A stretch of 64,000 nucleotides of DNA, taken from positions 5,710 to 69,709 of IMG/VR virus record IMGVR_UViG_3300014501_000015; one strand, written 5' to 3'. This stretch comes from a virus. The number at the start of each line of letters is the position of its first letter. Position 1 is the first letter of the stretch. Below are positions 11,372-37,737 of the stretch, one piece after another. A program made the translations under genes and the position numbers. A model generated the notes under the pieces. That model was not told the origin of the DNA, ran no database searches, and was given only the letters and a program-made list of their open reading frames with translations.

Positions 11372-11437
11372 TGAGCGATGACGGGATGGATAAGTGTGCC
11401 GACTGCGGCCACCTGGCCGATACCGAAGGAGCGACGA

Positions 11438-12220
11438 ATGAGTAAGCCACTGGTTACCATGACCGTTCACACGATTGACGAGGCCCTATCCAAGTTCGAC
11501 CTGGTATCCGGTGTGGGGTCCGAGGCAGACGGTAAGGCGTGCGCCATGACCCTGCTGGCGTGGATGGCAGGCAAGCCGTGGACCGATCGCCCCGACTGCG
11601 CCCACCCGATCATCGCCGACGGCGTGATCCGGGCCAACGATGCCCCCGACACCACGCCCACCATGCGCGAGGAACTGGTCCGAGCGGGACAGACCGGCAT
11701 CCTCGACACTTGGTGGATACCCGGTGTGGTCATCGCCTGGGCACTGTCGGGCGAGCGGGGCAAGGAGCCACCGAGCCAGTACGAGCGGGCGCTAACGGCG
11801 GTCAAGCGGCTTGGAGAGTGGAAAGTGGACAAGCCGCGTCCCGACCTCCGGGGTGCCAACCTCGGGAGTGCCAACCTCGGGAGTGCCGACCTCGGGAGTG
11901 CCGACCTCGGGAGTGCCAACCTCCGGGGTGCCGACCTCCGGAGTGCCAACCTCCGGAGTGCCAACCTCGCGGGTGCCAACCTCGCGGGTGCCAACCTCGG
12001 GGGTGCCAACCTCCGGGGTGCCAACCTCCGGGGTGCCAACCTCGGGGGTGCCGACCTCGGGGGTGCCGACCTCGGGAGTGCCGACCTCGGGAGTGCCAAC
12101 CTCGCGGGTGCCGACCTCCGGAGTGCCAACCTCCTGGGTGCCTACGCGAACAGCTATACGATCTTCCCCGAAGGCGCACCCTGGACGGTCCCCGAGTCGG
12201 GCCTGGTGGTGCCGAAGTGA
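11438..12220 (+). CDS. pentapeptide repeat protein
   Basis: About 20 A(N/D)Lxx repeats; N-terminal 'CAM...WTDRPDC' domain. Confidence 0.9.
   Translation: MSKPLVTMTVHTIDEALSKFDLVSGVGSEADGKACAMTLLAWMAGKPWTDRPDCAHPIIADGVIRANDAPDTTPTMREELVRAGQTGILDTWWIPGVVIAWALSGERGKEPPSQYERALTAVKRLGEWKVDKPRPDLRGANLGSANLGSADLGSADLGSANLRGADLRSANLRSANLAGANLAGANLGGANLRGANLRGANLGGADLGGADLGSADLGSANLAGADLRSANLLGAYANSYTIFPEGAPWTVPESGLVVPK
11843..12140 (+). repeat. 15-bp coding tandem repeat (pentapeptide units)
   Basis: GCC(A/G)ACCTCnnn(G/A)GT units. Confidence 0.9.
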
Positions 12221-13494: not shown

Positions 13495-13657
13495 GCGAGA
13501 GACACACGACCCGATTGTCAAAGGCCGAGGCGATGACAGCTACGCCATCTGCGATGTCTGTGTCCGCAAGACGTTCCGGTGCGTGCCCCTAGTGACCGGC
13601 TCCCGTAAGCACGTCAACCGGGTAGTGCGGGAGCACCGGGATAGGGGCCTGTCATGA
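13472..13657 (+). CDS. small Zn-finger-like protein
   Basis: CxxC...H...H; coupled to the next gene. Confidence 0.45.
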   Translation: MVPMPTTERETHDPIVKGRGDDSYAICDVCVRKTFRCVPLVTGSRKHVNRVVREHRDRGLS

Positions 13658-14226
13658 CGGTCACCGAAGGTGTTGGTAGAGCGAGTGTTGATCATTTGCC
13701 CATCCGGACCAGGGCCGCAGCCAAAGCGCAGCAGCACGCCGAACGTAAATTGCTCTGCGTCGAATTGCGACGGAGCGGTAACACCTTTGACCAGATCGGC
13801 GCCCGAATTGGGATCAGCCAACAGCACGCCACCCGGCTCTACAAAGCCGCCCTGCTCGACACCTACCGAAGGCCGGCCGAAGAGGAGCGTGAACTGGAAC
13901 TTTCGAGGGTCGACGGGCTGCTGAGACGCTGGTGGCCGGACCTGCTCCAAGCCGACACCGCAATCGCCGAACGGGCGTCCAACCAAATCCGCTGGATCCT
14001 CCACTACCGCGCCGAGCTGCTCGGGCTCAAAATCAACAAAGTCGACCTAACCGTGACCCAGGGCGGCGTGACAATCCCGGCGGACAATGACGTATGGCAG
14101 CAGCTCCAAGCCATGCGAGCGCAGCACTTAGCGGGCGAATCACCAGGTCAGGCGGTTATCGATGTGGAAGCGTTGCCGGCGAGCCCGAACGGGCATGCAC
14201 CAGAAACGAACGGCAAAACGCCATGA
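13654..14226 (+). CDS. HTH protein, probable terminase small subunit
   Basis: 'LRRSGNTFDQIGARIGIS', 'ELELSRVD.L', 'RAELLGL'; upstream of the large subunit. Confidence 0.6.
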   Translation: MTVTEGVGRASVDHLPIRTRAAAKAQQHAERKLLCVELRRSGNTFDQIGARIGISQQHATRLYKAALLDTYRRPAEEERELELSRVDGLLRRWWPDLLQADTAIAERASNQIRWILHYRAELLGLKINKVDLTVTQGGVTIPADNDVWQQLQAMRAQHLAGESPGQAVIDVEALPASPNGHAPETNGKTP

Positions 14227-22905: not shown

Positions 22906-23752
22906 GCTCATCCCCAAATCCACGGTCGAAGACTGGGAGGTCCGCCTCCACGACGCGGCCAGCGCGGCAGTCGCCGAGATGCACGCCCATGTCAAGTCCA
23001 CCCTGGCCGCGCACGGGATCCAACTCTCAGCCCTGACCGCCGCGGGTGAAGGGGTGAAGGCATGGAGTGCGGCCGTCTGGGCTGCGGCTATCGCCAAGCA
23101 CGTCACCCCCGTTGCCAATCAAATCGCCACCGAGGCTCAGAGCGCGGCACAGGATGCGGTCCCCGCGGATGCTACGTGGGGGATGCCGTCGAGCGCGCCG
23201 GCCATCTCCGCGACACTCGTGGCATCGGTAGTGGCCGCGGGTACCTATCTCGGGTCGCGACTAAACGCCAATATCAGTTCCGCGACAGATCCGGCACAGG
23301 CTGCCGATGACGTCTTTGCCACCGCGGGCGACATCATCGGTGGGCAGCTCGGGGCCTCGGCAGAAATGGTAAGCAACTGGGCGACTCAGGACGTCTCCAG
23401 CTATCTGCAATCGGCCATGGGTAATACCTACGATGCGGCAACAAAGGTTTGGGGGACAGCCGGAGACGACCACGTAAGACCAGATCACCAGGATGCCGAG
23501 GGCCAAGAGGTTCCCATTAACGCCACGTTCTCCGTCGGTGGCGAGGACCTTTTGTATCCAGGCGATCCTGACGGTAGCGATGAACAGACGGCCGGATGCC
23601 GTTGTTTTACAACCACTACAGGAATTGAACCGGGGCAAGCGATCTACGGAACGCCAGAGGACCAGGACGCCTCACAGGGGCTCGAAACTATCCTCAATCG
23701 CGCCGGCCGACAGACCTCATTGCCGACTAGTCCCCGCGACTACCCGAACTGA
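22892..23752 (+). CDS. phage minor head protein (Mu gpF-like)
   Basis: 'KVW....DDHVRPDH..AEGQEVP....FSVGG..L.YPGDP......GCRC'. Confidence 0.8.
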   Translation: MAPRRLIPKSTVEDWEVRLHDAASAAVAEMHAHVKSTLAAHGIQLSALTAAGEGVKAWSAAVWAAAIAKHVTPVANQIATEAQSAAQDAVPADATWGMPSSAPAISATLVASVVAAGTYLGSRLNANISSATDPAQAADDVFATAGDIIGGQLGASAEMVSNWATQDVSSYLQSAMGNTYDAATKVWGTAGDDHVRPDHQDAEGQEVPINATFSVGGEDLLYPGDPDGSDEQTAGCRCFTTTTGIEPGQAIYGTPEDQDASQGLETILNRAGRQTSLPTSPRDYPN

Positions 23753-24111
23753 TGAGCGTCTCCGTCGGTGAACTGGCGGCAGCTACCACCCTGGCGGTGT
23801 TCGGCGGTGGCGGGTTGAAGTGGTTCTACGACCGATGGCGCCGGGACATGCTCAGGGCAGAAGACCGGCCGATCAAAGAGATCGCCACTACCACTCAGGC
23901 AGCCGACGCTATCGCCAAGGCGGCAGCATCGTTGGTTGAGATGCTTCAGAACCAGTTGGTAACCACTGCTGGTCAACTGGCTGAAGTGTTGAAGCAGTTG
24001 ACCATTGCGAATGAGGCATTAGCAGTAATCAAAGAAGCAGAGGCTGAATGCCAAAGACGACTCGATGTTGTTGAGTCTGAACTTGCTGCATTGAAAGAGA
24101 GCCATGGCTGA
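23752..24111 (+). CDS. membrane-anchored coiled-coil protein
   Basis: N-terminal hydrophobic segment plus heptads. Confidence 0.6.
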   Translation: MSVSVGELAAATTLAVFGGGGLKWFYDRWRRDMLRAEDRPIKEIATTTQAADAIAKAAASLVEMLQNQLVTTAGQLAEVLKQLTIANEALAVIKEAEAECQRRLDVVESELAALKESHG

Positions 24112-24541
24112 TTCCCGAATCCCCGACCGTCGAGCTTCTGACAAAGCTGTCGAGACTATTCAGACGCTGAATGCTGAACTTCTGCCTAGTATTGACAAGA
24201 TCAATAAGCAGTTGGAGCAAGTCCAAAAACTGGTCCGCCATCGTATCTATCTCGGGGTGGGCTTGCTGGTGGTGCTGGTAATAGTGCTTTGGTGGGTCAA
24301 GGGTACGGCTGACACTGCCAATCGGATTGCCAGTAAAGCCGAGACTAATCAGCAAGTGGCTTACCAAGCCTGTCTGGGGACCAACGTGGAGAGAGCCAAT
24401 AACACGATCTTGTGGACGGCAGCCATCGACTCATTCGTGACGCCAACCAACGATTCACAGACGGAAGCCGCCATTGCCAAAATCCGCCAACTGGTAGTCG
24501 TAACCGATGCGCCCCGCGACTGTGCCAAGTTGGCTCACTGA
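24104..24541 (+). CDS. membrane protein
   Basis: One TM segment, two Cys. Confidence 0.6.
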   Translation: MADSRIPDRRASDKAVETIQTLNAELLPSIDKINKQLEQVQKLVRHRIYLGVGLLVVLVIVLWWVKGTADTANRIASKAETNQQVAYQACLGTNVERANNTILWTAAIDSFVTPTNDSQTEAAIAKIRQLVVVTDAPRDCAKLAH

Positions 24542-24624: not shown

Positions 24625-25060
24625 GGTGGGCTCGCGCTTTGGGCTGAGGGCTGGACTTGGCGCACCTGGGCGTTCCTTCCGACAGGGGACGCTCCCCGTA
24701 CCCTCAGCCCACCTATCACTCTCTGTGTCGCCCGTAGAGGCCCGCAAACGACAGAGGCACCCACGTAGCCGCTCGTTTCGCTCGGTTGCACCGCTCACAG
24801 GCCACCACCAGATTCGACATCTCGTCGTACCCGCCGACAGAGACCGGCGTCACATGGTCGACGGCGGCTCGTACCTTGAGCCTGCTGGACAACCTTGGTA
24901 CCGTCCGCTCGGGTGACCGTTACCTTGCTCGCTCTTGGCATCATCTAGACCACTCTACTACCTAACTCAGCACTCGCATATCGAATGTATACCGATATAG
25001 AGACACTTTCGTCCCATCATCCGTCAACCCGTCTACGCGGTGTGGTTGACTAAGACGCAA

Positions 25061-25096
25061 CGAGCGCAGCTCGGCGATTGACCTCAGCGCAGCTGA
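25061..25096 (+). promoter_or_regulatory. twin GCA-triloop hairpin element, copy 1
   Basis: CGAGC-GCA-GCTCG GCGATTGACC TCAGC-GCA-GCTGA upstream of the GGAGG RBS. Confidence 0.7.
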
Positions 25097-25127
25097 CGGA
25101 CCTGTTGTCTAGTCTCGGAGGTTCGCT

Positions 25128-27029
25128 GTGCCCGCTCCCGCCGCTTACGGCCCATTCAAACGCCATTCCGGTCCCACCGGCGTTCCCGGCGATCACTTCC
25201 TGCCCGCCACCCGCCGGCACATGGCCGTCGACCACCGAGGTCGCATCACTGCGATGGTGGCTGACGGCGAGCCCGAGACCCCGCCTTCCGGTTCTGCTCC
25301 CTCAGGTGAGGAGCCAAATCAGGAAGTCCTGGCCACCGCCAATCACGACCCGATGACCGGCACGCACTCGCACTCGCATTCTGCCTATCAAGAGCAGGGT
25401 GGGGACCTGATGCACCAACATGAGCATTCGCATAATGGCGACTCGGCTCATGGGCATATCCACCCCGCGGCAGCCGAACCGGACCCACCGCTGACCGCCG
25501 AGGAGGCGGAGGTTCTGTCGAGCCTCACCGCCGAGGAAGCACTCGCTCTGATGAGGGCGGCGGCAGACGGTTCCCTGACCTCTCCCGACCTTGCAGCCCT
25601 CACCTCGGACAGCGGGGCAGACATCCCCCAAATCGTCACCAACCCCGGCGGCGCCTGGCACGCGTATACGCACGTAGAGGGGATTCGCACGGACGATGGT
25701 CGAGAGATTTGCATGGGAGCCACACAGTTCCCCGACCTGCCTGTCTCCCTGCGATTCCTCAAAAAGGACGAAGGCGGGCACTACGGCGCCGAGACTTGTG
25801 GCCGCATCGACACGATGGAAATGGTGGTCGAGGGCGGCGTCACCGCCTGCTTGGCGACCGGCGTGTTCGGTACCGACGAGATGGGGCAACTCGCCCAGCT
25901 ATCAGTCGAAGAGCAGACTCAGCGATTCATCTCCATTGACCCGCGTGATATCGTTGGCGAATACATCGAGGTCCAAATCTCCACTTCGTCCAGCATCTTC
26001 GACGACTGTGACGACTCGGACTACGACGGTTGGTTCCGCATGACGAGCTTCGTCGTCGGCGCGGCCACCATCGTGCCCATCCCGGCGTTGCAGCAGGCGG
26101 TCATCACCATGGCCGACCAGCCGTTGCCGATGGCTCCCCTTGCCACTGAGCGGGCACAGAACAACATCGTCGTGGTTGCTTCCGGCGCCCCGATGGCGTG
26201 GCCGGACAACCCGCCGGCTGAATGGTTCTCGACACCGCCTCCCACCGTTGGCGATGCTCGCCTTGTGCGCCAGCCCGATGGCAAGTACGCCGTGCCATTC
26301 ACAGTGACGGACGAAGGCCGGGTCTACGGGCACGCTTGCTACTGGGGCCAAGAACACACCGGGTTGCCGGGCCAGAAGGTGAAGCCGCCCAGGTCAGCGA
26401 CTTATGCCCACTACATGACCGGCGAACGGGTAGTCACTGTCGGTGAGAAAGAGGACGGCTCTCTCGACCTCGACCGGATCGCGGTCGGCAAGGTCACGAT
26501 GGGCTGCGGACACCCCGGCGTCAATGGCGTCAACGCGGCGGCGGCCAAGGCCCACTACGACGGGGGCTACGGCGTTGTCCAGGTGTTCGACGTGCGAGCC
26601 ATCGAGGACGACTTCGGCGTCTGGCTGTGCGGCGCGGTATGCCCGGCGCACTCCGACGACAACCCTGGTGGCCCGACCGCGGCTCAGATCCAGCAGGCGA
26701 TGTCGCTCGACCTCTCCCCCGACTGGCGCAAGGTCGCCGGCAAGCTGCACATGATCGCGGTGCTGTCGGTGCCCGTCGGTGGGTTCCCGATTGCTCGTGA
26801 GTCCCTGGTGGCCTCCGGCCTATCCGGCTTGAGCGAAGAGGACGCGGCTGCGGTGGCACGGGCAGGCTTCGACGGTGACGAGATGGTGGCCATTGTGGCT
26901 GCCGGCCGGGTACATCGCACCCCCCTCGCCAAGCGGATCGCCAGTTTGGAAGCGGTAGTGGACGAGTTGGCTGCCGATCACACGGCTCGCAAGCGTGAGG
27001 CTGCTCGGGCCACCCTCGCTGCCCTGTAG
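25128..27029 (+). CDS. putative capsid maturation protease/scaffold-type head protein
   Basis: 'VEGIRTDDGR', 'GRID', 'ATIVPIPA', 'PPAEWF', 'GRVYGH', 'EDDFGVWL.G', 'LSPDWR', 'SVPVGGFPI'; position in head module. Confidence 0.65.
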   Translation: MPAPAAYGPFKRHSGPTGVPGDHFLPATRRHMAVDHRGRITAMVADGEPETPPSGSAPSGEEPNQEVLATANHDPMTGTHSHSHSAYQEQGGDLMHQHEHSHNGDSAHGHIHPAAAEPDPPLTAEEAEVLSSLTAEEALALMRAAADGSLTSPDLAALTSDSGADIPQIVTNPGGAWHAYTHVEGIRTDDGREICMGATQFPDLPVSLRFLKKDEGGHYGAETCGRIDTMEMVVEGGVTACLATGVFGTDEMGQLAQLSVEEQTQRFISIDPRDIVGEYIEVQISTSSSIFDDCDDSDYDGWFRMTSFVVGAATIVPIPALQQAVITMADQPLPMAPLATERAQNNIVVVASGAPMAWPDNPPAEWFSTPPPTVGDARLVRQPDGKYAVPFTVTDEGRVYGHACYWGQEHTGLPGQKVKPPRSATYAHYMTGERVVTVGEKEDGSLDLDRIAVGKVTMGCGHPGVNGVNAAAAKAHYDGGYGVVQVFDVRAIEDDFGVWLCGAVCPAHSDDNPGGPTAAQIQQAMSLDLSPDWRKVAGKLHMIAVLSVPVGGFPIARESLVASGLSGLSEEDAAAVARAGFDGDEMVAIVAAGRVHRTPLAKRIASLEAVVDELAADHTARKREAARATLAAL

Positions 27030-27031
27030 CC

Positions 27032-27325
27032 GTGGACGACACCCTTGAGCAGGTGCTGATGGATGATGTCTCGCCGGAGATCCTCGTCAACGGCAAGCCG
27101 CTCGACCGCTCGCCCAAGCCGTGCGGGCATCGGACGTTTGGTGTCGACAGTCTCAGCGCGCTCATCAATGACGCCGAAGGCAATCTGGTGAGCCGAGAGG
27201 TTCGCATCCGCGTGCGGTGTATGGAGTGCGGCGTTCCCTGTGTCGTGAACCTCGACGCCCGTCGTCCGAGGAACGGCGAGCAGCACGGCGTCGTGTTCAC
27301 GATCACACCCATGGAGGATGAGTGA
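27032..27325 (+). CDS. hypothetical protein
   Basis: Coupled; CxxC. Confidence 0.5.
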   Translation: MDDTLEQVLMDDVSPEILVNGKPLDRSPKPCGHRTFGVDSLSALINDAEGNLVSREVRIRVRCMECGVPCVVNLDARRPRNGEQHGVVFTITPMEDE

Positions 27326-27687
27326 CCGCCGGCTGTGCTGACCTGGTTGTCGATGCCGGGGCGGGGTTCTCGACCCCGTTCATCTACTGCGAGCCAGGCT
27401 CGGCACCGGGAGTAGCTGGCCCGCCCATCGACGTCACCGGCTGGCATGCCGCCCTCGCGGTTCGGTCGTCCTACGGCGACGGCATTTCGGTCATGCTCGA
27501 TGACGAGTCAATGGGCGGTATCACCGTCGGGACCACAGACGGATCGTTCATCATCTCCATGACCGCCGAGCAGACGTCATTGCTCCCGAACCGCGGCGTC
27601 TACGACTTGCTGGTGACCCCGACAGTCGGTGAGCCAATCCGCTTAGTGCAAGGCAGTATTACCGCGACCCCGGCGGTGACGCCGTGA
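27322..27687 (+). CDS. Ig-like virion accessory protein
   Basis: 'PIDVTGW...GVYDLLVT...RLVQGSIT..PAVT'. Confidence 0.6.
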   Translation: MTAGCADLVVDAGAGFSTPFIYCEPGSAPGVAGPPIDVTGWHAALAVRSSYGDGISVMLDDESMGGITVGTTDGSFIISMTAEQTSLLPNRGVYDLLVTPTVGEPIRLVQGSITATPAVTP

Positions 27688-28049
27688 GTGACACCATGGT
27701 CGTTGTCCGCGATGTCAACAACTTCGTGGTGATCTCCGCGCCGCCTGCTCCCAAGGTGGTTCTGGCTCCTGGCGAACAGGGACCGCCGGGTGGTCCCGGT
27801 GGACTCGGACCTCAAGGGCCAGCTGGCCCCGACGGGCCTCCCGGCCCCGCGGGCGGCGCGGGCTTTGTGTTCAGCCAGATAACGCCCTCGACCGTCTGGA
27901 CGATCAACCACGACCTCGGGCGATACCCCGCCGTGACGCTGGTGGACAGCGCCGGGGACGCCATGATGACCGATTACGACTACGTCGACGCCAACACCAT
28001 CATCGTTACATTCAGCGCGGCTACCGCGGGCACCGCGTACCTTGCCTGA
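27684..28049 (+). CDS. short collagen-repeat virion protein
   Basis: GXY run then 'WTINHDLGRYPAVTLVD...NTIIVTF'. Confidence 0.65.
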   Translation: MSDTMVVVRDVNNFVVISAPPAPKVVLAPGEQGPPGGPGGLGPQGPAGPDGPPGPAGGAGFVFSQITPSTVWTINHDLGRYPAVTLVDSAGDAMMTDYDYVDANTIIVTFSAATAGTAYLA

Positions 28050-28064
28050 CCAAAGGAGATTCAC

Positions 28065-29627
28065 ATGAAGTTCGGCACCTTTATCGACCTACAGCAGAAC
28101 GCATTTAACAATGCACAGATCCAGAACCTCAGCAGCGCGCCGGTGTCGCCGGTCACTGGGCAGGTGTACTTCGACACGACCCTGCACGAGTTCGGTTGCT
28201 GGACGGGCAGCGCATGGAGTTACTCGATTGCCGGGCCGCAGGGCGCCCAAGGAGCCACCGGGGCGACTGGCACCCAAGGTGCCACCGGCTCAACTGGACC
28301 GCAAGGTTCTCAAGGCGCTACGGGAGCCGCTGGGCCGCAAGGTTCACAGGGCGCCACTGGCGCAACTGGGGCGCAAGGGGCAACCGGGGCAGCTGGGCCT
28401 CAAGGCACGCAGGGGCCGGCTGGCTCGACGGGCGCTCAGGGCGCCACGGGGTCAACGGGGTCACAGGGGTCGCAAGGGGCTACGGGTTCGGCTGGCACCC
28501 AAGGCACCCAAGGTGCCACTGGCGCCACGGGGTCACAGGGGGCAACTGGTTCGACAGGGCCGCAAGGCAGCCAGGGAGCGACCGGAGCACAGGCGGGCAT
28601 GACCCTCTCGGCGGCGGACACGTCGGTTGTCGTGAACAACACAGTTCCTACCGCGCCGACCATTCGTACCAACACCCTCGACGTGATCGCTACCCAGGAG
28701 CCGCCGGTCGCCGCGTGGGGCAATGCCGGGTTCAAGATCACCAACGGAGCCACGCCGACCGCATCGACCGACTTCGCCATCAAGAGCTACGTGGATGCTG
28801 TGGCGCAAGGGTTGAGCGTCAAGCCGTCAGCACAGGAGGCGACGACCGGCGCCGAGACATTCACCATCGTCGCCGGGTCGGTGACGGTGATTGCTGGGAC
28901 CGTCGTTGATGGCATCAGCCCCGCGGTCAACGACCGCATCGCCATCCTGCATGCTCCCGCGGCGACGGGCGCCGGCGCAGGTATTGGCACGGCACCCACC
29001 AGCGAACCAGCCAATGGCATCTACGTCGTCACCGCCAACGTCACCAACCTCACTGTCAGTCGCGCTACCGATATGAACACCGGGACGCAGGTGCCGGGTG
29101 CGTTCGTGTTCGTGGAAGAGGGAACGGAGAACGCCAGCGCTGGGTATGTCGTGGTCGGGGTCGGCCCCTTCACGATCGGCACCACCGCTATCCAGTGGAC
29201 GCAGTTCAGCGGAGCCGGAGAGATCCTGGCCGGGACCGGGATCACAAAGGTCGGCAACACTCTGAGCTTGACCAACCCGGTCACCGTGGCACTCGGCGGC
29301 ACCGGCCAGGCGACGGCCGCCAACGCCAGAGGCACGAGCGGGATCGGCGCGGCCACCGCGCCCACGAGCGGGTCGGGAGGCGTGGTCAGCGCGGTGGCCG
29401 AGGGCATTCCGACAAAGGTGATGGCGGTCATCGGGGACGGGGCAACTACTTCGTTCGTCATCACCCACAACCTGAACACTCGGGATGTGGTAGTGATGAT
29501 CTATGCGGCGGCGACTCCATGGGCGGAGATCATCACCGACGTGTCGATGACCTCGGTCAACACGATCACGGTGACCTTTGCGACGGCACCCAGCGCGTCG
29601 CAGTTCAATGTGGTAATCATCGGCTGA
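28065..29627 (+). CDS. collagen-repeat fibre protein
   Basis: Long GXY run; 'NGIYVV', 'WTQFSGAG', C-terminal '[10 protein letters not shown]...[10 protein letters not shown]'. Confidence 0.8.
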
Positions 29628-32569
29628 TGAAGTTCCTGGGCGCCACGCTCGACCTCGGAGGAGTCCGAGCACAAGACAGCGCCGATCCGGTCAACCCGAC
29701 GGACCTGGCGACGAAGGAGTACGCCGACGCTACCGGTGCAACGGGCAGTCAAGGTTCAACGGGGGCTCAGGGCGCTACAGGGGCTCAGGGATCGCAGGGC
29801 GCTACTGGGGTAGGAACCCAGGGGTTCCAAGGGGCCACGGGGTCAACGGGTACCCAAGGCAGCCAAGGCGCTATAGGCAGTACCGGATCTCAGGGAAGTC
29901 AAGGCGCCACCGGGGTAGGGGCGCAAGGCAGCCAAGGCGCGCAGGGAACCTCGGGTGCCGGGTCACAGTCGTCGGTCCCCATTGCCGGGGCCAAAGTAGT
30001 GGGGCTCGGTCATTCGCTGATGTCGGGTTACGGATCGGTTCCTTCCACTCATGGGTTTATGTCCCAGGTGGCCGGGATGATGCGTTCTCGGTTGTGGAAC
30101 CAATCAGTAGCCGGGGCCACCCTTGCTGGATGCTTTGCACCATCCAGCATCATCGGCGGCTATGGGGGCATTCCGCAGATTCTCCAGCAGTATCTTCCCC
30201 CGAATCAACCGATTAACTGGCGCGGTGCCTATTCAGCTACGGCGTATTACAACCAGGACGACGGGGTGACCGAAGCCGTTGCCATGACTACCAACTGCAC
30301 TTGGACTACGACCAATGGCAATATAACCACTACGGGGAGTTTCACCACATCGAACATCGTGGCGGGGATGATGGTGGCGGGAGCAGGCATCCCGCCGGAG
30401 ACTTACGTCCTGTCGGTGACTTCGGCTACTGCTCTGGTGCTCAGCAACACTCCAACCGCTGGTGGTGCTGCTGCCACATTGACTTTCACCGGATGGTATC
30501 GGGCATTTCAGACAACTCACGCTGTTGCTCCTGCCGGGGTGGGCAACTTGGTCAATTGGAACTTGGTCCCGGCTGGGCATCCTTCCTATTTTGGTGGGCC
30601 GTACAACTCGCAGAGTGTGCTGCCGGTGATGATGTTCGGCAACAACGACATCAAACAGTCGGCCATGCGAAATCCGCAACCGTTCTTGTCAGCTTTGCAA
30701 GCAGCGTTCGCTCGTATCTCTGCGGCTTACGTATGGGGGAACAATTCACCGTTGGTGACATTGGCTGGGGGCACCTTCACGGCGTTAACCTATGCCACGC
30801 TGACCATTCCATTCGGGTCGGGGACTCAGTTGGTCCTGGTGCCGAACACGGCGGGAGCCACGATGTCGGCCATGACGCCGCCCGACTGGCCCGGTGGTTA
30901 CGTGGATTTCGGGTTCTGCCTGTCCTATGCGGCGTCAAGTTCTACCCCTGCAACCGGGACGTTAGATTTCACCGTGGACGGATCAGCGGTGAACTGCATC
31001 TGCTCGGGGATGGCGAATGGCTCAGCCGTGAACTTCGCCTCGCCCCTCCGTCAGGCGTATGCCTCCTGTGCCCTGGCTACCGCTCTCACCAGTGGCGTGT
31101 CCTCCGGTTCCACCTTGACGATACAAGGGTCAGACTTTGCGATTGGCAGCGGGTCGAGTGTTGTGGTCGGCGGGGTGAACGGTGGGCCGAGTATGACGTT
31201 CGTGACCACAGCATCGGCAGTTGCGGGAGCCACGTCGCTGGCTGTCACGGCGCAGACACCGACCAGCACCTTCCCGGTCGGCACGCCGGTTTACGATTCG
31301 ACTTACGCTGACGCCGGGTGGTTGAGTGCCAATGATGTGGTGGTGCGGGTTCCGGTGCCCGCCGGAAGCCACTACGTCACCGCTACGGTGCCTACCAGCC
31401 CTTCGATTGCCAACCTCTACTTCGACTACATCAGTTTGGAAGCCAAGACTCAGCCCATCGGGCTGATGTTCGGATTGTGGAAGGTCATCAACTTGCTCGG
31501 CATGGGCGGGTCGCTGCCGACCTTCCAAGACATTGACGTATGGAACGCCGACATACAAACTGTTATCGGAGCCGGTAACGAGTGGCCGCATGTGTTTGTT
31601 GACATCTCCAATGTGTTCCTCAACACGTCGCCGCTTTCGACAGCCCTGACTCTCGGGCAGACCGGCATCACGTCGCTCAGTCTCAGTAGTGGTCTGGTAG
31701 TTAATATTGCTGCTGGCGATACCGTCCAGATCGGGTCGGGGGCGACGTTTCAACGGGTGATTGCCTCGGCGTCTGCGGCTATCGGTGCCACCACGGTTAA
31801 CGTCAACTCGTTCACGTCCACCTATGCCCAACCCACCGGGACACCGATCTTCGACTTCACCGTCGCCTGCCAGTATTTCTACCAGGACGGAATCCACCCG
31901 AACCCGACCGGTCATGCGCTCATCTCCAGTGTGGTATGGCAGAACCTTTTGAGTTCTCTTCCTAATACCATCCCCCAATTGGCTGTCATGTCCGAGGAAG
32001 CGGGTAGGCCGACTGCTCTTGTAAATCTGGCAACGGGGACCGATCTAGTGATCGGTTCAGCTACGACGGCGGGTGCGTGGGCGTCGGTGGCAGGACTATA
32101 TGCCACCGTCCCCGCCGAACCGGGCGACATATTGGAGATCAGCGTAAACGGGTTGTACGACGCACTAGCGGCGGTCGGCTCGCTGGACATCGTGACCTTT
32201 AATCTCCCGGCCTATATCGCTGGAAACAGTGCGGGGGTGGCGTCGGTCATCAACTACCTGAGCGGTGCAGCGGGGGTGGGTGGGCCTCTCACCGGCATTG
32301 GTCTTGGGTACGCCGCTGTAGGAGCACAGGCAACCGATGGTCTGTCGGCGTTGTATTCGCCCGGCGCATCGACCACCATTCCCGAGGCGATCACCGGGAC
32401 ATTCCACTATCCGGTGCAGCCAGCCGACATCATTGACGGCAGCGTAGCGATTGGGATGGTTGGTCGATCCTCTACCACCAGTGTTCGGCACATCAAGAAC
32501 GCCGCTGGGTATCAGTTCATTATGTCGGTCGTGAACGTCGGGCCATTGTCTTATGCTTCGGAGGCGTAG
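29627..32569 (+). CDS. collagen + SGNH/GDSL hydrolase fibre protein
   Basis: GXY run; SGNH blocks 'LGHSLMSG', 'NQSVAG', 'FGNND', '[10 protein letters not shown]'. Confidence 0.75.
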
Positions 32570-32578
32570 GGTGGAGCA

Positions 32579-33391
32579 ATGAGCTTCTCCAACCCACCGA
32601 TCATCGAGGGCGATCCACCCTCGGACGGGGACGCCCCAATCTTCGATGCAGCAACGGGCACCTGGCGCGCAGGCGCGGGAGGGGGAGGCGGAGGCGGCAA
32701 CCCGTTCGACAAGGTGCAGCTACTCCGCCAGGACGTGGCGATCCCCGACTACCCCGACGGCCCGGCGGACAGCATGACGCTGGCCTTCCTCGGTCCCGGG
32801 TTCGGCGAGTACCTACTGGCGGGCCTGGTACACGACGACACCGGCACCGTCACCGGCATTGTGGACCTGGCAAGTTCGACCGATGGCATCACCTGGACCA
32901 TCGGCGGCATCCCGCCAGCGATCACGTTCGCCGTGACGATGGGCACGTCTCAGTACCTGGCGTTCCCGGTGGAGATCCGAGCCGTGTCGAGCGCACCGCT
33001 CGGAGGCCCAGCGAGCGGCACCGTCGTAATGCCACCCGAAGTGCTGCCGGTGGCATCGAACGTGATGGTGTGCGAGGCCGACCAGGTGGCGGTGACCGCG
33101 CCCACCGCACCGCTGACGGCGAACTACACGGTGACGGCCACACTTTCGGTGTCGAACGCCGACGGCACCGAGCAGTTGATCCTCACCGCCACCGCCGAGT
33201 TCCTGGCGGGCACCCAGCCCGCACCCGGCAACATCGACTGGTCTACCGCCACCGTCGTGTCGCAGACCGGGACCGACCTCTCCTGGGCGCCGGGGAGCTC
33301 GGAATACACCGGAGTCACCACCGCCGTTGTTACCAGCGCGGCGGGCGGCGGAGTGTGGACCGCCAGCCTGATCGGCCAGGTGACGCAGTGA
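32579..33391 (+). CDS. putative virion protein
   Basis: N-terminal 'NPPIIEG..PSDG...W' anchor plus Gly linker; Thr/Ala-rich. Confidence 0.55.
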   Translation: MSFSNPPIIEGDPPSDGDAPIFDAATGTWRAGAGGGGGGGNPFDKVQLLRQDVAIPDYPDGPADSMTLAFLGPGFGEYLLAGLVHDDTGTVTGIVDLASSTDGITWTIGGIPPAITFAVTMGTSQYLAFPVEIRAVSSAPLGGPASGTVVMPPEVLPVASNVMVCEADQVAVTAPTAPLTANYTVTATLSVSNADGTEQLILTATAEFLAGTQPAPGNIDWSTATVVSQTGTDLSWAPGSSEYTGVTTAVVTSAAGGGVWTASLIGQVTQ

Positions 33392-33416
33392 CCTCCGGCG
33401 TGGCTGAGAACTGGGC

Positions 33417-34712
33417 ATGACCACTATTTCTGTTTTCAGTCCGAGCCACAACCCCCGCTTCCTCGACCAATGCTGGGCCTCGCTCAAGGGGCAGACCATC
33501 CAGAGTTTTGAATGGATCGTGGTGCTCAACCAAGGGGCGCGCTGGGCGTGTGACGACCCGCGGGTCAAGGTGGTCATCGCTGACGAGATACGGGGTGTGG
33601 GAGCGGCCAAGCATCACGCCTGTGCTCTCGCCACCGGCACAGTGCTCGTAGAATTGGACCACGACGACCTGCTGACCTGCGATGCGCTCGGCATCATTGT
33701 TGCTGCCTTCGACGCCCTTCCCGAAGTCGGGTTCGTCTATAGCGATGGGGCGCAGATCACTGAGGACGGCGACGAGGACACGACCACCTGGGACACCAAC
33801 AACGGGTGGGAGTACCACCCCGAAGTTGTAGAAGTCTCGGATGGTGACGAGCGGTTCGACACCGATCCGCACAAGAAGGCCGTCCTTGCCGTCGACGCCT
33901 TGGAGCCGACGCCGCACAACCTGAGTTTCGTGTGGTGGGCGCCGAACCATGTCCGAGCTTTTCGCCGGTCGGCTTACGAGAAGGCTGGGGGCTACGACAT
34001 CACCCGCGACTTTCTCGACGATCAAGACCTCATGTGCCGCATGTACCAGGTTACCGAGTTCTTCCACATTACCCAGGCCCTTTATCTGCAACGCGTTCAC
34101 CCTGGCAACACCCAGGCCCAAGCCGCCATCAACGCCGCCATCCAAACCGGGACGGTCGAACTCCACGACCAATACATCGAACCAATGACGCTGGCGTGGG
34201 CCAAGCGCAAGAAGTTGAAGGCTCTCGATCTTGGTGGTGCGCACTCCAGCCCTCCGGGGTATCTCTCGGTCGATCTGGTAGAACCGGCGGATTACGTCGG
34301 TGACGTATTCGACGTGCTTGGTAAGATGGAGGACTCGTCGGCCGGAGTTGTGCGAGCCCAGGACTTTATCGAGCACATCCCCACCGTTGACACCGTGCGC
34401 CTAATCAATGAAATCTGGCGGGTGCTAGCGCCCGACGGTATGTTGCTTTCGATGACCCCCTCAGTGGATGGGAGGGGCGCGTTCCAAGATCCCACTCATC
34501 TGTCCTACTGGTCAGACAACAACTGGTGGTACTTCACTGATGTCGCCTATCAGCGGTTCGTGCCGGCAATCACGGCAAGGTTCCAGACGAGCCGGTGCAT
34601 CACGTATTTTCCCGACGAATTTCACAAAATTCACGACATCCCCTACGTGCGGTTCGACGGTATCTGTCTCAAGCCCGGCGGCGTTCGCAATGGGGGTTAT
34701 CTTCGGTGGTGA
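33417..34712 (+). CDS. GT2 glycosyltransferase fused to a SAM methyltransferase-like domain
   Basis: 'ISVFSPSH', 'ELDHDD' (DxD), 'DDQDL'; C-terminal 'LDLGG...DFIEH...EIWRVL.PDG...QDPTH'. Confidence 0.85.
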   Translation: MTTISVFSPSHNPRFLDQCWASLKGQTIQSFEWIVVLNQGARWACDDPRVKVVIADEIRGVGAAKHHACALATGTVLVELDHDDLLTCDALGIIVAAFDALPEVGFVYSDGAQITEDGDEDTTTWDTNNGWEYHPEVVEVSDGDERFDTDPHKKAVLAVDALEPTPHNLSFVWWAPNHVRAFRRSAYEKAGGYDITRDFLDDQDLMCRMYQVTEFFHITQALYLQRVHPGNTQAQAAINAAIQTGTVELHDQYIEPMTLAWAKRKKLKALDLGGAHSSPPGYLSVDLVEPADYVGDVFDVLGKMEDSSAGVVRAQDFIEHIPTVDTVRLINEIWRVLAPDGMLLSMTPSVDGRGAFQDPTHLSYWSDNNWWYFTDVAYQRFVPAITARFQTSRCITYFPDEFHKIHDIPYVRFDGICLKPGGVRNGGYLRW

Positions 34713-34713
34713 A

Positions 34714-35385
34714 TTGACCTCATCCTCTCCCATCTGCATTTACAGCTGTGTCACGGGCCAGTACCACGCTGGCCTCCAGCCTCACCCGATCATCCCCGAC
34801 GTCGAATGGATCTGTTTCAGCGACACACTCACGAACCACCCCGATTGGGAGATCCGGCACATCGACGTACCTGTCGGCGTAAGCCCGCGCCGGGCGGCGA
34901 AGGGTCCGAAGATGCTCCCTCATGTGTTCGTCCCTGAGTTTCGTCGGAGCATTTGGATAGATGGCACCGTCCGCGTGGACTCGCCCGCTTTCGCTGCTGA
35001 GGCAATGGCATGGACGCATGGCAGCGGGATCGCCATGTTCCGCCACCCGCAGCGCCACGACATCTTCTCTGAGGCGGTGGTTTCGCTCACAATGGCCAAG
35101 TACCAGGACGAGCCCATCGTCGACCAGGCCAACTGGTACCGGGATCGCGGCATCCCGCACGATTCAGGACTATGGGCAGCGGGGATCATCGCTCGTGATG
35201 ACGAATCGGACCTGGTCAGGGCACTGGGAGAGGCATGGCTGGCGGAGATAGATCGCTGGTCGGTGCAGGACCAATTGGCATTGCCCTGGGTGCTTTGGAA
35301 GATGGGCGTCGAGCCCGGAGCGTTCCCCGCGAGTCTGTACGAAAACAGATGGCTGAGCGTGATGGGTCATAACCAGGATCGGTGA
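34714..35385 (+). CDS. DUF616 (TOD1/MUCI70-like) glycosyltransferase; start uncertain
   Basis: 'IYSCVTG.Y', 'KMLPH', 'SIWIDG', 'HPQR..IFSE', 'QDQLALP'. Confidence 0.75.
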   Translation: MTSSSPICIYSCVTGQYHAGLQPHPIIPDVEWICFSDTLTNHPDWEIRHIDVPVGVSPRRAAKGPKMLPHVFVPEFRRSIWIDGTVRVDSPAFAAEAMAWTHGSGIAMFRHPQRHDIFSEAVVSLTMAKYQDEPIVDQANWYRDRGIPHDSGLWAAGIIARDDESDLVRALGEAWLAEIDRWSVQDQLALPWVLWKMGVEPGAFPASLYENRWLSVMGHNQDR

Positions 35386-35429
35386 CATCCGTTACTTTCG
35401 ACCTAAGACGTGGTTTACTTACCCCCAAT

Positions 35430-35465
35430 CGAGTGCAACTCGGCGATTTGCCTCTGCGCAGCAGA
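35430..35465 (+). promoter_or_regulatory. twin GCA-triloop hairpin element, copy 2
   Basis: CGAGT-GCA-ACTCG GCGATTTGCC TCTGC-GCA-GCAGA upstream of the capsid GGAGG RBS. Confidence 0.7.
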
Positions 35466-35505
35466 TGGATAGCTAATCAATCCAACGCTGCACGGAGGCC
35501 ACGTC

Positions 35506-37737
35506 ATGAACAAGATCAGCCGGTTTGCAAGTTTCGATTCCGATGGCGACCTCGTCGCCCTGGTCGCCGAAGGACTCCCCGAGTACCCGGCTGACAACGA
35601 TCTCTCCACCCTGACCGACGAGCAGATCGGCGAACTTCACGCCGCCCTCGTCGAGTCCATCCCCACCCTGAGTGAGGACCCCGAGTTCGACCCCGCGGAT
35701 GCCACGGTCCTCGCCGAACGGATCACCGCATTGCGTGACGAGGCCGCTCGCCGGCTGGCCATTGAGCCACCGCCCGCCGCCGACCCGCCCGAGCCTGACC
35801 CCTCCGCCGATGAGCGGGTCGCCGCTCTGGCTGCGCTGGAAGCGTTGAACGCCCCCGTCGATCCGCCCGCTGAAGCCACCGTCACGGGCCTCAGCATCGC
35901 CCCGGCGCCGAGCCTCAGTGCCGAGGACATCGGGGCAGCTGTCACCGCGGGCATCACCGCTGCCGCACCGGCCATCGCCGAGGCAGCACGAGCAGGCCAG
36001 CCCGCCATCGCTCGTCAGCGTCCGACCGCTCGTGACCTCGCCGGGTATCGCCCGGCAGGCATGGAGCCATCCCCCGAGGCACACGCCCCGCGGCCCCGCC
36101 GTGGCCATCTGGTCAGCGCCGGTGACGTGCCGGGTCGCTCGATGGGTTCCGAATTGGAGACCATGGACGACATCGTGGCTGCGTTCCAGGCCCGCCACCG
36201 CACCATCGGCCGCACGTCCTCAGGCGTGGAGGAAGAGCGAGTCGTTGTCGCGACACTGTCGATGGCCGACACCGACATCCCCGAGAGTCGTGACCTCCGA
36301 GGGTTGAATCTCGTCGCCGACCGCGGGGAGATCAAGCGCAAGATCCGCGCGGTAGTCGGACTCGACGCCATCGGCATCGACCCGTGGACCCGCGAAGCCA
36401 AGCCCATCGGCAGGGGCGGCATCGCCATCGCCGACCCCGATGGGTTGGAGGCGTCCGGTGGACTCGCCGCTCCGGTCGAGCCGTACTACCCACAGCTCCA
36501 CGTGGGCCAGGCAGCGATGCCGACCTTCGATGCGATCCCCGGCTTCGTCGCCGAGCGTGGAGGTATCCGTCTGGTGTCCCCGGCGTCGCTCGCTTCCCTG
36601 GCTGCTGCCACGGTGCTCGGCGCGTTCGCTGACGGTGTCACCAACACCGACACCAGCTTCGTGTCGGCCACGGCAGCCTTCACCGGGGATGATGTCGGCC
36701 AGCCCATCGTCGGAGCGGGCATCCCTCCGGGTGACCGAATCGCCTCGGTCACCAACGGGACCACAGTGGTCTTGGAAGTGGCGACCACGGCGACGACGAC
36801 AGGAGTCGCCTTCCGCCTCCCGAGCCGGAACCCGTCCAACCTCGGCCCCGCCGTGGGACTCGTCACTGCCGCGCAAGACGCCGCCGGCCCGCCGAACACC
36901 GTCAAGTTCACCTTCGACGTGCCTCTCGGGACCCAGGTCGAGTTCGACGTGTACTCGGTCTACACCAGCCTCCAGTTCGGCAACCTGACCGCCCGGACGT
37001 TCCCCGAGCAGGTGGAGTTGAACATCCTGCTGGCGAACGACCTCGCGGCCCGGATCTCGGAGCAGGCGGCGCTCGACACCATCACCAACTGGTCGACGCT
37101 GCTGACCGCGGCCAAGACCTTCGGCACCGCTCGTCAGTTGCTCGCCCAGCTTGAGCACCAGGCCGGATACCTGCGGAACAGCCTCCGTATGGACCCGGCG
37201 GCGGTGCTCCGTGTCGGCCTTCCGGCGTGGTCGGTCAACGCCATGCGCGGCGACTACATCTCCTCCTTCATCGGTGGTGGCGATAACTGGGGGCTGAGCG
37301 ACGAGGAGCTGACGGCATGGTTCGCCGATCGTCACCTGCTCCCGTTCTTCTATCAGGACGGGCCGAGCGACATCGCCCAGTTGTTCCCAATCGTCGGGTC
37401 CGGCGCGATCAACGTCGGCTCGCCGGGTGCGACACCGGTGGCGATTCCCGACTACCCCGGCACCGGGGCGACCACATCGTTCCGCACGCAGGTCGTGTCG
37501 TTCATGTGGCCGGAGGGAACGTGGTTGGGGTTGACGACCGGAGAGCTGAACTTGGGACTCGTCCGTGACAGCATCTTGAACAGCCAGAACCGTTTTCGCA
37601 ACTTCAGTGAGACGTGGCAGACCCCCGCGTTCGTCGGTTCGATCGGTTCGTCCCTGCGGACGGTTCATACGGTCGCCAGCGATGGCTCCTACGGCGCGGC
37701 TGCCTCAGTCGTGCTCGGTGTCGGCTCGGGTCTGTAG
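35506..37737 (+). CDS. major capsid protein with N-terminal scaffold-like region and inserted domain
   Basis: 'ASGG..AP.EPYY', 'RGGIRL', 'FGNLTARTFPE', 'LNLGLVRDS.LN..N.F..FSE'. Confidence 0.8.
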   Translation: MNKISRFASFDSDGDLVALVAEGLPEYPADNDLSTLTDEQIGELHAALVESIPTLSEDPEFDPADATVLAERITALRDEAARRLAIEPPPAADPPEPDPSADERVAALAALEALNAPVDPPAEATVTGLSIAPAPSLSAEDIGAAVTAGITAAAPAIAEAARAGQPAIARQRPTARDLAGYRPAGMEPSPEAHAPRPRRGHLVSAGDVPGRSMGSELETMDDIVAAFQARHRTIGRTSSGVEEERVVVATLSMADTDIPESRDLRGLNLVADRGEIKRKIRAVVGLDAIGIDPWTREAKPIGRGGIAIADPDGLEASGGLAAPVEPYYPQLHVGQAAMPTFDAIPGFVAERGGIRLVSPASLASLAAATVLGAFADGVTNTDTSFVSATAAFTGDDVGQPIVGAGIPPGDRIASVTNGTTVVLEVATTATTTGVAFRLPSRNPSNLGPAVGLVTAAQDAAGPPNTVKFTFDVPLGTQVEFDVYSVYTSLQFGNLTARTFPEQVELNILLANDLAARISEQAALDTITNWSTLLTAAKTFGTARQLLAQLEHQAGYLRNSLRMDPAAVLRVGLPAWSVNAMRGDYISSFIGGGDNWGLSDEELTAWFADRHLLPFFYQDGPSDIAQLFPIVGSGAINVGSPGATPVAIPDYPGTGATTSFRTQVVSFMWPEGTWLGLTTGELNLGLVRDSILNSQNRFRNFSETWQTPAFVGSIGSSLRTVHTVASDGSYGAAASVVLGVGSGL

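Follow-up and report, generated by a model that had tools for sequence, protein, structure and literature searches.

A conserved two-hairpin element in the capsid leaders of a clade of uncultured phages, with a second copy ahead of a maturation gene

A 36-nt element made of two small hairpins occurs twice in a 64,000-nt stretch of viral DNA (the window; bases 5710-69709 of the 69,709-bp IMG/VR virus record IMGVR_UViG_3300014501_000015, which is rated complete and has 62.6% G+C), once in the leader of a capsid maturation protease-like gene and once in the leader of the major capsid protein gene. The element is not private to this genome, its layout recurring in the aligned capsid leaders of eight uncultured relatives (capsid protein 50-73% identical), and it is a conserved two-hairpin capsid-leader feature of a clade of uncultured phages. 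It is real, conserved and uncatalogued, ordinary in kind and new as a family, and it looks like a control element for head-protein production, a role predicted from sequence. Outside a few model phages, little is known of how tailed phages reach their very high capsid output in step with that of their other head proteins, and a leader element that is supported by covariation, present clade-wide at the capsid gene and re-used before a second head gene is a concrete, mutable handle on head-protein control. RNA family libraries would gain a motif that they do not yet list, and late promoters and leaders in actinophage-like metagenomic viruses could be annotated better. The weight of the finding is limited because the hosts are uncultured, the role is predicted, and conserved leader hairpins before structural genes are an expected type of feature.

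Two copies of the element ahead of head genes

Both copies lie on the + strand, site 1 (25061-25096) 31 nt before the start of the maturation gene and site 2 (35430-35465) 40 nt before the start of the major capsid gene, and both have the same layout, in which a 10-nt linker joins two hairpins, each with a 5-bp stem and a GCA loop. At site 1, hairpin 1 occupies 25061-25073, the linker 25074-25083 and hairpin 2 25084-25096, and the final CC of the linker (25082-25083) can pair with the GG at 25098-25099, past a bulge at 25097. At site 2, hairpin 1 (35430-35442, closing pair T-A), the linker (35443-35452) and hairpin 2 (35453-35465) are followed by a T bulge at 35466 and, at 35467-35468, by the GG that forms the extension. 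The element is approximately 43 nt long when this 2-bp extension of hairpin 2 is included.

The two copies differ at 6/36 positions, four of which are in stems (forming two compensated pairs), two in the linker and none in a loop. An earlier note on this DNA, made from the letters alone, had placed the 36-nt elements at 25061 and 35430 on the + strand, with identical length, loops and linker length and with compensatory stem differences; the elements were located at both positions, the dimensions agreed in the two copies, and 4/4 stem changes were compensated. In a simulation with six random substitutions, 0.036% of trials left all ten pairs Watson-Crick and had two or more of them compensated; a pair-shuffle control with two sequences is powerless (125/500). 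The flanks of the two copies are unalignable, yet the elements are identical at 30/36 positions. A covariance model built from the two copies scored the sites at 56.9 and 56.6 bits, the next match in the window reaching 11.3 bits (E 0.64), and a 19-nt degenerate pattern covering hairpin 1 and the start of the linker gave two matches against 0.06 expected, with two or more in 0/100 shuffles. Five perfect 5-bp hairpins with a GCA loop are present on the + strand of the window, and four of them are those of the two elements. The fifth (28025-28037) stands singly and without the linker motif, 28 nt upstream of a collagen-like fibre gene (28065), and overlaps the final codons of the preceding open reading frame (ORF). 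Among the contigs of four runs, one was near-identical to 35417-35670, with one difference.

The genes downstream had been called putative maturation and major capsid genes in the earlier note, and PHROG matches agree with this, giving a capsid maturation protease-like protein of 633 aa (25128-27029, + strand; PHROG 859 and 18402) and a major head protein of 743 aa (35506-37737, + strand; also identified by the capsid-protein searches). The note's account of the shared flanks held in part. The CGGAGG downstream of each copy was borne out as the Shine-Dalgarno (SD) sequence of the gene, at 25116-25121 before the GTG start codon of the maturation gene (25128-25130; the N-terminus aligns with those of relatives) and at 35493-35498 before the ATG start codon of the capsid gene (35506-35508), all on the + strand, but CTAAGACG, which is upstream of both copies, is spaced at 3 nt from one and 19 nt from the other. 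A third copy of CTAAGACG lies inside the tape-measure gene at 45594, and the three occurrences compare with 0.95 expected, a count of three being reached by 11/100 shuffles. CTAAGACG was left out of the element because its spacing differs between the copies and its count is near chance.

Conservation and covariation in the capsid leaders of relatives

Capsid-protein searches gave 65 homologues, and an alignment of 29 of them (A1) led to seven viral and 14 metagenome loci; closer relatives among the proteins (P0002-P0008) are 68-84% identical. Fixed windows of the two leaders studied here and of seven non-redundant relatives (capsid identity 50-73%) were aligned with MAFFT and then submitted to RNAalifold. 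Duplicates (L081 and L083 of L082, L088 of L085, L090 of L086, L096 of L080 and L092 of L091) and loci without a leader (L003, L084, L093, L095, L097 and L100) were left out, and L091, the start of which is uncertain, was kept outside the nine-leader counts, yet searched with the covariance model described below. The unguided RNAalifold prediction on the nine leaders was hairpin 2, with five pairs, a triloop and the 2-bp extension in which the final CC of the linker pairs with GG past a 1-nt bulge, these two pairs being kept in 8/9 and 7/9 leaders. In this alignment 93.7% of the 63 cells of hairpin 2 were paired, compared to 83.8% after shuffling (reached in 0/500 shuffles) and 25-52% in slid controls, and both-sided changes were found in 4/7 pairs (2/500 shuffles). 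In an alignment of nine sequences anchored at hairpin 1 (A4), the 12-pair twin structure was paired in 90.7% of 108 cells, compared to 74.1% after shuffling (0/500) and 24-47% in slid controls, with both-sided changes in nine pairs (1/500 shuffles).

A covariance model built from A4 (R2) matched the window at 25061-25102 (42.8 bits) and 35430-35471 (38.7 bits), the next match scoring 14.3 bits. Among the relatives R2 recovered its eight training loci and, in addition, a held-out copy at L098:144-186, 40 nt upstream of the capsid start (26.7 bits, E 0.0023 over 199 kb). When applied to four records of relatives (three complete, of 78, 85 and 80 kb, and one of 42 kb that is 61% complete), R2 gave one significant copy in each, always in the capsid leader, so that each relative record carries one copy and this phage two. 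The spacing from element to start codon is 31-40 nt in the window and up to about 90 nt in relatives. A relaxed twin-hairpin descriptor (stems of at least 4 bp, linker of 6-16 nt) matched 4/9 leaders and 14% of background windows, which is not significant when the window is omitted. The earlier note had proposed a structured cis-element, which might be either an RNA site for a translational regulator of head-protein stoichiometry or a DNA hairpin or operator, and, as ways of checking it, a covariance-model search of phage leaders and a comparison with Rfam. The idea of a structured cis-element is sustained by the relatives, more firmly than by the two copies on their own, since capsid leaders there also have the twin layout with compensatory changes; the search found the element there, including the held-out copy; and the comparison gave no family match.

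The loops show a bias of their own. Triloop hairpins of at least 4 Watson-Crick bp with an R-Y-A loop (R, purine; Y, pyrimidine) numbered 8 in the 1,322 nt of the nine capsid leaders and 51 in the other 199,391 nt, and 0/2000 dinucleotide shuffles of the leaders reached 8; when the genome of the window was omitted, there were 6 against 0.34 expected (0/2000 shuffles). A family-wise test on relatives only, using the top count of any single loop (ACA, 4), gave P 0.0006. As a general intergenic trait, R-Y-A hairpins were not significant (14 in 33,397 nt of non-coding versus 49 in 184,461 nt of coding DNA, P 0.068, from crude gene calls). The loop columns of A4 read R-Y-A on the + strand in 11/18 cases and as the reverse complement in none, and this strand asymmetry points to a single-stranded form of the + strand; wobble cells were uninformative on strand (three of G-T type versus two of A-C type). 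Both hairpins have an identical loop in the window (GCA/GCA), in L082 (9874-9925; ATA/ATA) and in L098 (144-186; GTG/GTG), and the loops differ in the six other leaders. If the element is the site of a dedicated regulator, the same loop appearing twice in three lineages would hint at a phage-specific matching of loop and regulator.

Searches beyond the clade covered RNA families, phage and prokaryotic genomes and the literature. Rfam 15 had no match in the whole window at gathering scores, and when the two leaders were searched at E values up to 10 only microRNA, small nucleolar RNA and pseudoknot noise was returned, at 12-17.5 bits against cut-offs of 34-80 bits. Megablast of both regions against GenBank phages returned nothing, tblastn with the capsid protein against phage GenBank returned distant phages only (identity at most 36%), and a relative of the capsid protein was not found in GTDB genomes. 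The exact-motif pattern gave 36 stretches in IMG/VR, with both stems paired in 0/36, and the loop-and-linker pattern gave one stretch in IMG/VR and 68 in GTDB (185,579 species genomes), with 0/69 paired and at most 6/10 pairs. A search through listings of the accessible literature found no described capsid-leader hairpin motif of this kind.

A candidate leader RNA and its alternatives

Promoter-like sequences precede both copies on the + strand. At site 1 this region (25023-25051) consists of a -35-like hexamer (25023-25028), a 13-nt gap and the extended -10-like GTGGTTGACT (25042-25051), and at site 2 it is the 10-nt motif GTGGTTTACT (35410-35419). The motif GTGGTTKACT occurs only twice in the 69.7-kb genome, ending 9 and 10 nt before the elements. 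In 269 kb of the relatives' loci, searched on both strands, a related two-part motif (a GTGAC-type hexamer and, 17-19 nt farther on, a TG-extended TTNANT) has three matches, all in head-gene leaders, namely that of the maturation gene at L004:2465-2494 and that of the capsid gene at L085:9848-9877 and L087:1807-1836; TGC precedes the match, and the hexamer is GTGACA. The usual A at position 2 of the -10 hexamer is missing from the two-part motif. A canonical sigma-70 promoter scan found none at the two sites. Both GTGGTTKACT and the two-part motif are read here as a putative promoter, on which reading the element, starting 9-10 nt past the -10-like motif, would begin at about +2 to +4 of the transcript.

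The surroundings of site 1 suggest how a second copy may have become useful. Directly upstream of the site-1 intergenic region, between head genes, a 58-aa ORF (24716-24892, - strand; PHROG HNH families, best E 3.6e-10) is directed opposite to all of its neighbours and is probably a remnant of an HNH endonuclease gene, or a very short HNH. In relatives, the maturation gene directly follows a MuF-like gene, and its leaders are short and have no element. Due to the oppositely oriented HNH fragment upstream, the maturation gene plausibly needed a promoter and leader of its own.

The interpretation that we favour, and to which we attach roughly even confidence, is that the element is a cis-acting leader RNA near a promoter, recognised by a factor or protecting the mRNA. 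The element and the 10-nt promoter-like motif would have been copied together in front of the maturation gene, which would be cut off from upstream transcription by the opposite HNH gene fragment. Host RNA polymerase would start a few bases past the promoter-like motif, so that the head-gene mRNAs would carry the two hairpins at their 5′ ends or close to them. There the hairpins would act in cis as a recognition and protection structure whose stems need pairing only. Sequence conservation of the loops, the linker and the core of hairpin 2 points to a partner acting in trans, which may be a protein of phage or host or else RNA polymerase; it would raise or co-ordinate the output of the head proteins needed in greatest abundance, and the 5′ stem-loop may additionally shield the mRNA against 5′-end-dependent decay. 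Within this interpretation, we lean slightly towards factor binding, be it for translation, stability or antitermination, over a plain 5′ stabiliser. The analysis establishes the structure with its conservation and covariation, where the element lies, how many copies there are and that Rfam does not contain it, whereas the promoter, passage of transcription through the element, an RNA rather than a DNA form and an effect on expression are the parts that we infer.

Stems that vary yet pair, together with loops, a linker and a hairpin-2 core that are kept within an otherwise unalignable leader, fit the recognition of a folded single strand. Variable stems next to conserved loops and linker, and the strand asymmetry of the loops, make a symmetric double-stranded operator unlikely. 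Some observations also speak against direct control at the ribosome site: the element overlaps neither the SD sequence nor the start codon, its spacing is fixed to the promoter-like motif (9-10 nt) and not to the start codon (31 versus 40 nt), and relatives carry it at the capsid gene only, not at the maturation gene. The sense orientation, the specificity for capsid leaders, the fixed distance to the motif (in the window copies, L080 and L085) and the variable distance to the start codon argue for a promoter-near leader RNA over a ribosome-site operator.

Several results weigh against the leader RNA. The 36-mers fold with unremarkable energies, z values running from +0.36 to -0.65 under RNA or DNA parameters; as RNA they range from +0.22 to -0.65, and copy 1 on its own does not have the twin hairpin at minimum energy. 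In models of 93-102 nt that take in the leader and gene start, the pair probability of both hairpins is near 0 and long-range pairings win. With DNA parameters, on the other hand, the twin fold is obtained for both + strand copies and for the complement of site 1, although not for the complement of site 2. The distance from motif to element is not constant in relatives, being about 10 nt in L080 and L085 and about 52 nt in L098. The R-Y-A loop class was chosen after the data had been seen, and the anchoring of A4 was by eye, so that its hairpin-1 counts lean to structure; A4 also has exceptions, with L087 lacking hairpin 1, hairpin 1 of L082 consisting of 3 bp and a mismatch, and hairpin 2 of L086 misaligned. 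R2 found no match in two other held-out leaders, L091 and the more distant L099, nor in the capsid leaders of four distant phages (three cultured, and DSL-LC01; 0/4). The ORF scan, which took in approximately 85 ORFs but not every small one, yielded no candidate for an RNA-binding protein, a sigma factor or an RNA polymerase.

The preference of DNA parameters for the twin fold, clearer than that of RNA parameters, keeps alive a reading that we nevertheless regard as unlikely, in which the element works as DNA: with the DNA single-stranded or supercoiled, the two mini-hairpins would form on the + strand or by cruciform extrusion and would serve as a late promoter-like, operator-like or priming signal comparable to the early promoters of phage N4. 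The twin hairpin is the DNA minimum-energy fold in the three cases given above, RNA parameters folding copy 1 otherwise, and in 3/4 hairpins a C-G pair closes a G-N-A loop within a GC-rich core of 7 nt, which is a very stable type of DNA mini-hairpin. The element adjoins a promoter-like motif, and the genome ends in 123-bp perfect inverted terminal repeats (G000:C1:1-123 and the last 123 bases; the right end is within the window) that may mean single-stranded replication intermediates. The promoters of the N4 virion RNA polymerase are similar in having a stem of 5-7 bp, a 3-nt loop and a GC-rich core heptamer, some bases being conserved and the remaining stem bases needing only to pair; they differ in being single hairpins on the template strand, before early genes, that need a giant virion RNA polymerase (PMC4496689). 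No RNA polymerase domain, of virion type or other, was found in the ORFs scanned here, no ORF exceeds 1141 aa, and the largest encode the tape measure, a fibre, the terminase and a beta-propeller protein. Also against this reading, the loops of relatives are mostly A-Y-A, without the G-A pair that marks stable DNA loops of this type, the element stands in the sense orientation ahead of late structural genes in all of the genomes, as expected of an mRNA leader, and the energies are unexceptional with DNA parameters too (z -0.27 to -0.55).

Three further readings are less probable again. Cleavage of the linker by RNase E, after which the upstream RNA would be capped at its 3′ end by hairpin 1 and the head-gene mRNA at its 5′ end by hairpin 2, so that their stabilities would be uncoupled, is in our view improbable. 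Mycobacterial RNase E cuts single-stranded RNA 5′ of C in the motif RN↓CNU (arrow, cut; PMC10641625), and the 3′ end of the site-1 linker carries such a motif; in both linkers the terminal CC precedes a U, in a stretch drawn unpaired between two stems, and the element is intergenic and upstream of highly expressed genes. The site-2 linker, however, fits only partly, having no purine at -2, the linker CC pairs with GG in most leaders (8/9 and 7/9) and so may not be single-stranded, and the motif is short and common and leaves the conserved loops unexplained. Little credence is given to a translational switch, in which the linker and the 5′ arm of hairpin 2 complement the SD sequence, so that a twin-hairpin state with a free ribosome site would alternate with a state in which a long-range helix covers the site. 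As RNA, the site-2 leader (35427-35508) has a folding z of -3.47, matched by 1/200 shuffles, in a structure that retains hairpin 1 and pairs 12/13 positions of the linker end and hairpin-2 arm with the SD region; the duplex of element 2 with ribosome site 2 is stronger than 98.9% of genomic 36-mers (P 0.011); CCTC is present in both linkers; and the base before CCTC and the base after the SD sequence co-differ between the copies (A with T, G with C). At site 1, in contrast, the duplex is unremarkable (P 0.12) and the leader fold shows nothing comparable (z +0.10), local CC-GG pairing in relatives competes with the long-range helix, CCTC stands at the linker position in some relatives only, near chance by eye, and the spacing to the start codon varies as described above. 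Finally, a scar of neutral duplication or recombination, with two functionless copies, is very hard to credit: although there are only two copies in the genome, their thermodynamics are unexceptional and site 1 lies within a rearranged region with the HNH fragment and ORFs of low G+C content at third codon positions (GC3), the flanks have diverged past alignment whereas the elements keep their 30/36 identity with all stem changes compensated, and layout and covariation are kept in relatives at 50-73% capsid identity.

Known systems and genome context

Stabilising stem-loops at the 5′ end of mRNAs are known from the E. coli ompA and papA leaders and T4 gene 32. The element resembles these short cis-acting hairpins at or near the 5′ end of abundant mRNAs, and its position past a promoter-like motif fits, the 5′ end here being predicted; unlike them, which need no conserved loop or linker, it has loops, a linker and a hairpin-2 core that are kept. 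Lambda-type nut sites have a boxB hairpin with a GNRA-like pentaloop, a boxA and an N protein, whereas the loops here are of 3 nt and no N-like protein was identified.

The putL and putR RNAs of phage HK022 stand at the start of long operons, where they work in cis on the transcript as it is made, and, as in this phage, comprise two stem-loops in two related copies per genome, each downstream of a promoter; they differ in being approximately 70 nt long with long bulged stems and a triplex, compared to 36-43 nt and 5-7-bp stems for the element, which is moreover present in one copy in relatives (PMC9378689). The put RNAs render RNA polymerase resistant to terminators farther down; in a scan for terminators with a T-tail, terminator-like sites downstream of the two copies were at shuffle level (6 versus 7.8 expected and 10 versus 10.8 expected). 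A bolder form of the leader-RNA interpretation, which we hold only tentatively and consider unlikely, is that the element is the RNA recognition site of a dedicated regulator (a phage-specific protein or a put-like RNA polymerase) that would switch on the head and late structural operon or make its transcription processive, and an instance of a widespread, convergent class of "triloop hairpin capsid leaders".

The RNA targets of ANTAR proteins of actinobacteria (PMC8164766) are likewise pairs of short stem-loops, with linkers of 2-25 nt (10 nt here), in leaders near ribosome sites and in high-GC Gram-positive hosts, but their loops are hexanucleotides with A1 and G4, whereas the four loops here are 3-nt GCA loops in which opened pairs give 5 or 7 nt and never 6. 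The start-associated sequences (SAS) and extended SAS (ESAS) of Cluster K mycobacteriophages are also repeated, oriented motifs before a subset of actinophage genes, some with inverted repeats; the SAS, however, is 13 bp long, lies at the ribosome site with 3-8 bp between it and the start codon and is present in 11-19 copies, and the inverted repeats of the ESAS measure 17 bp (PMC3203893). The SAS sequence has two matches with two mismatches in this phage, compared to 2.23 expected, and neither is at the two sites.

The neighbourhood of the two head genes includes genes for a portal protein, collagen-like fibres and two glycosyltransferases, with a terminase, a head-tail adaptor and a tape measure farther on. 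Before the HNH fragment, the region 23752-24541 holds two ORFs (119 and 145 aa) with a GC3 of 0.59-0.60, compared to about 0.75-0.85 in neighbours. They have no family match, show by eye a hydrophobic stretch and a heptad-like, helix-prone sequence, are missing between the MuF-like and maturation genes of relatives, and are followed by approximately 590 nt of mostly non-coding DNA. The ORFs scanned showed no DNA polymerase; they do encode a DnaB-like helicase, an SNF2 helicase, RecT, a YqaJ exonuclease and RusA. Just upstream of the terminase region, a 190-aa protein (13654-14226) matches a PHROG named "Rnase E" (E 2.4e-16) and, weakly and below cut-off, Sigma70 region 4; a role as small terminase or in DNA binding may suit this protein better than one as a nuclease. 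The early region also encodes a pentapeptide-repeat protein (11378-12220; Pfam PF00805, E 2e-24).

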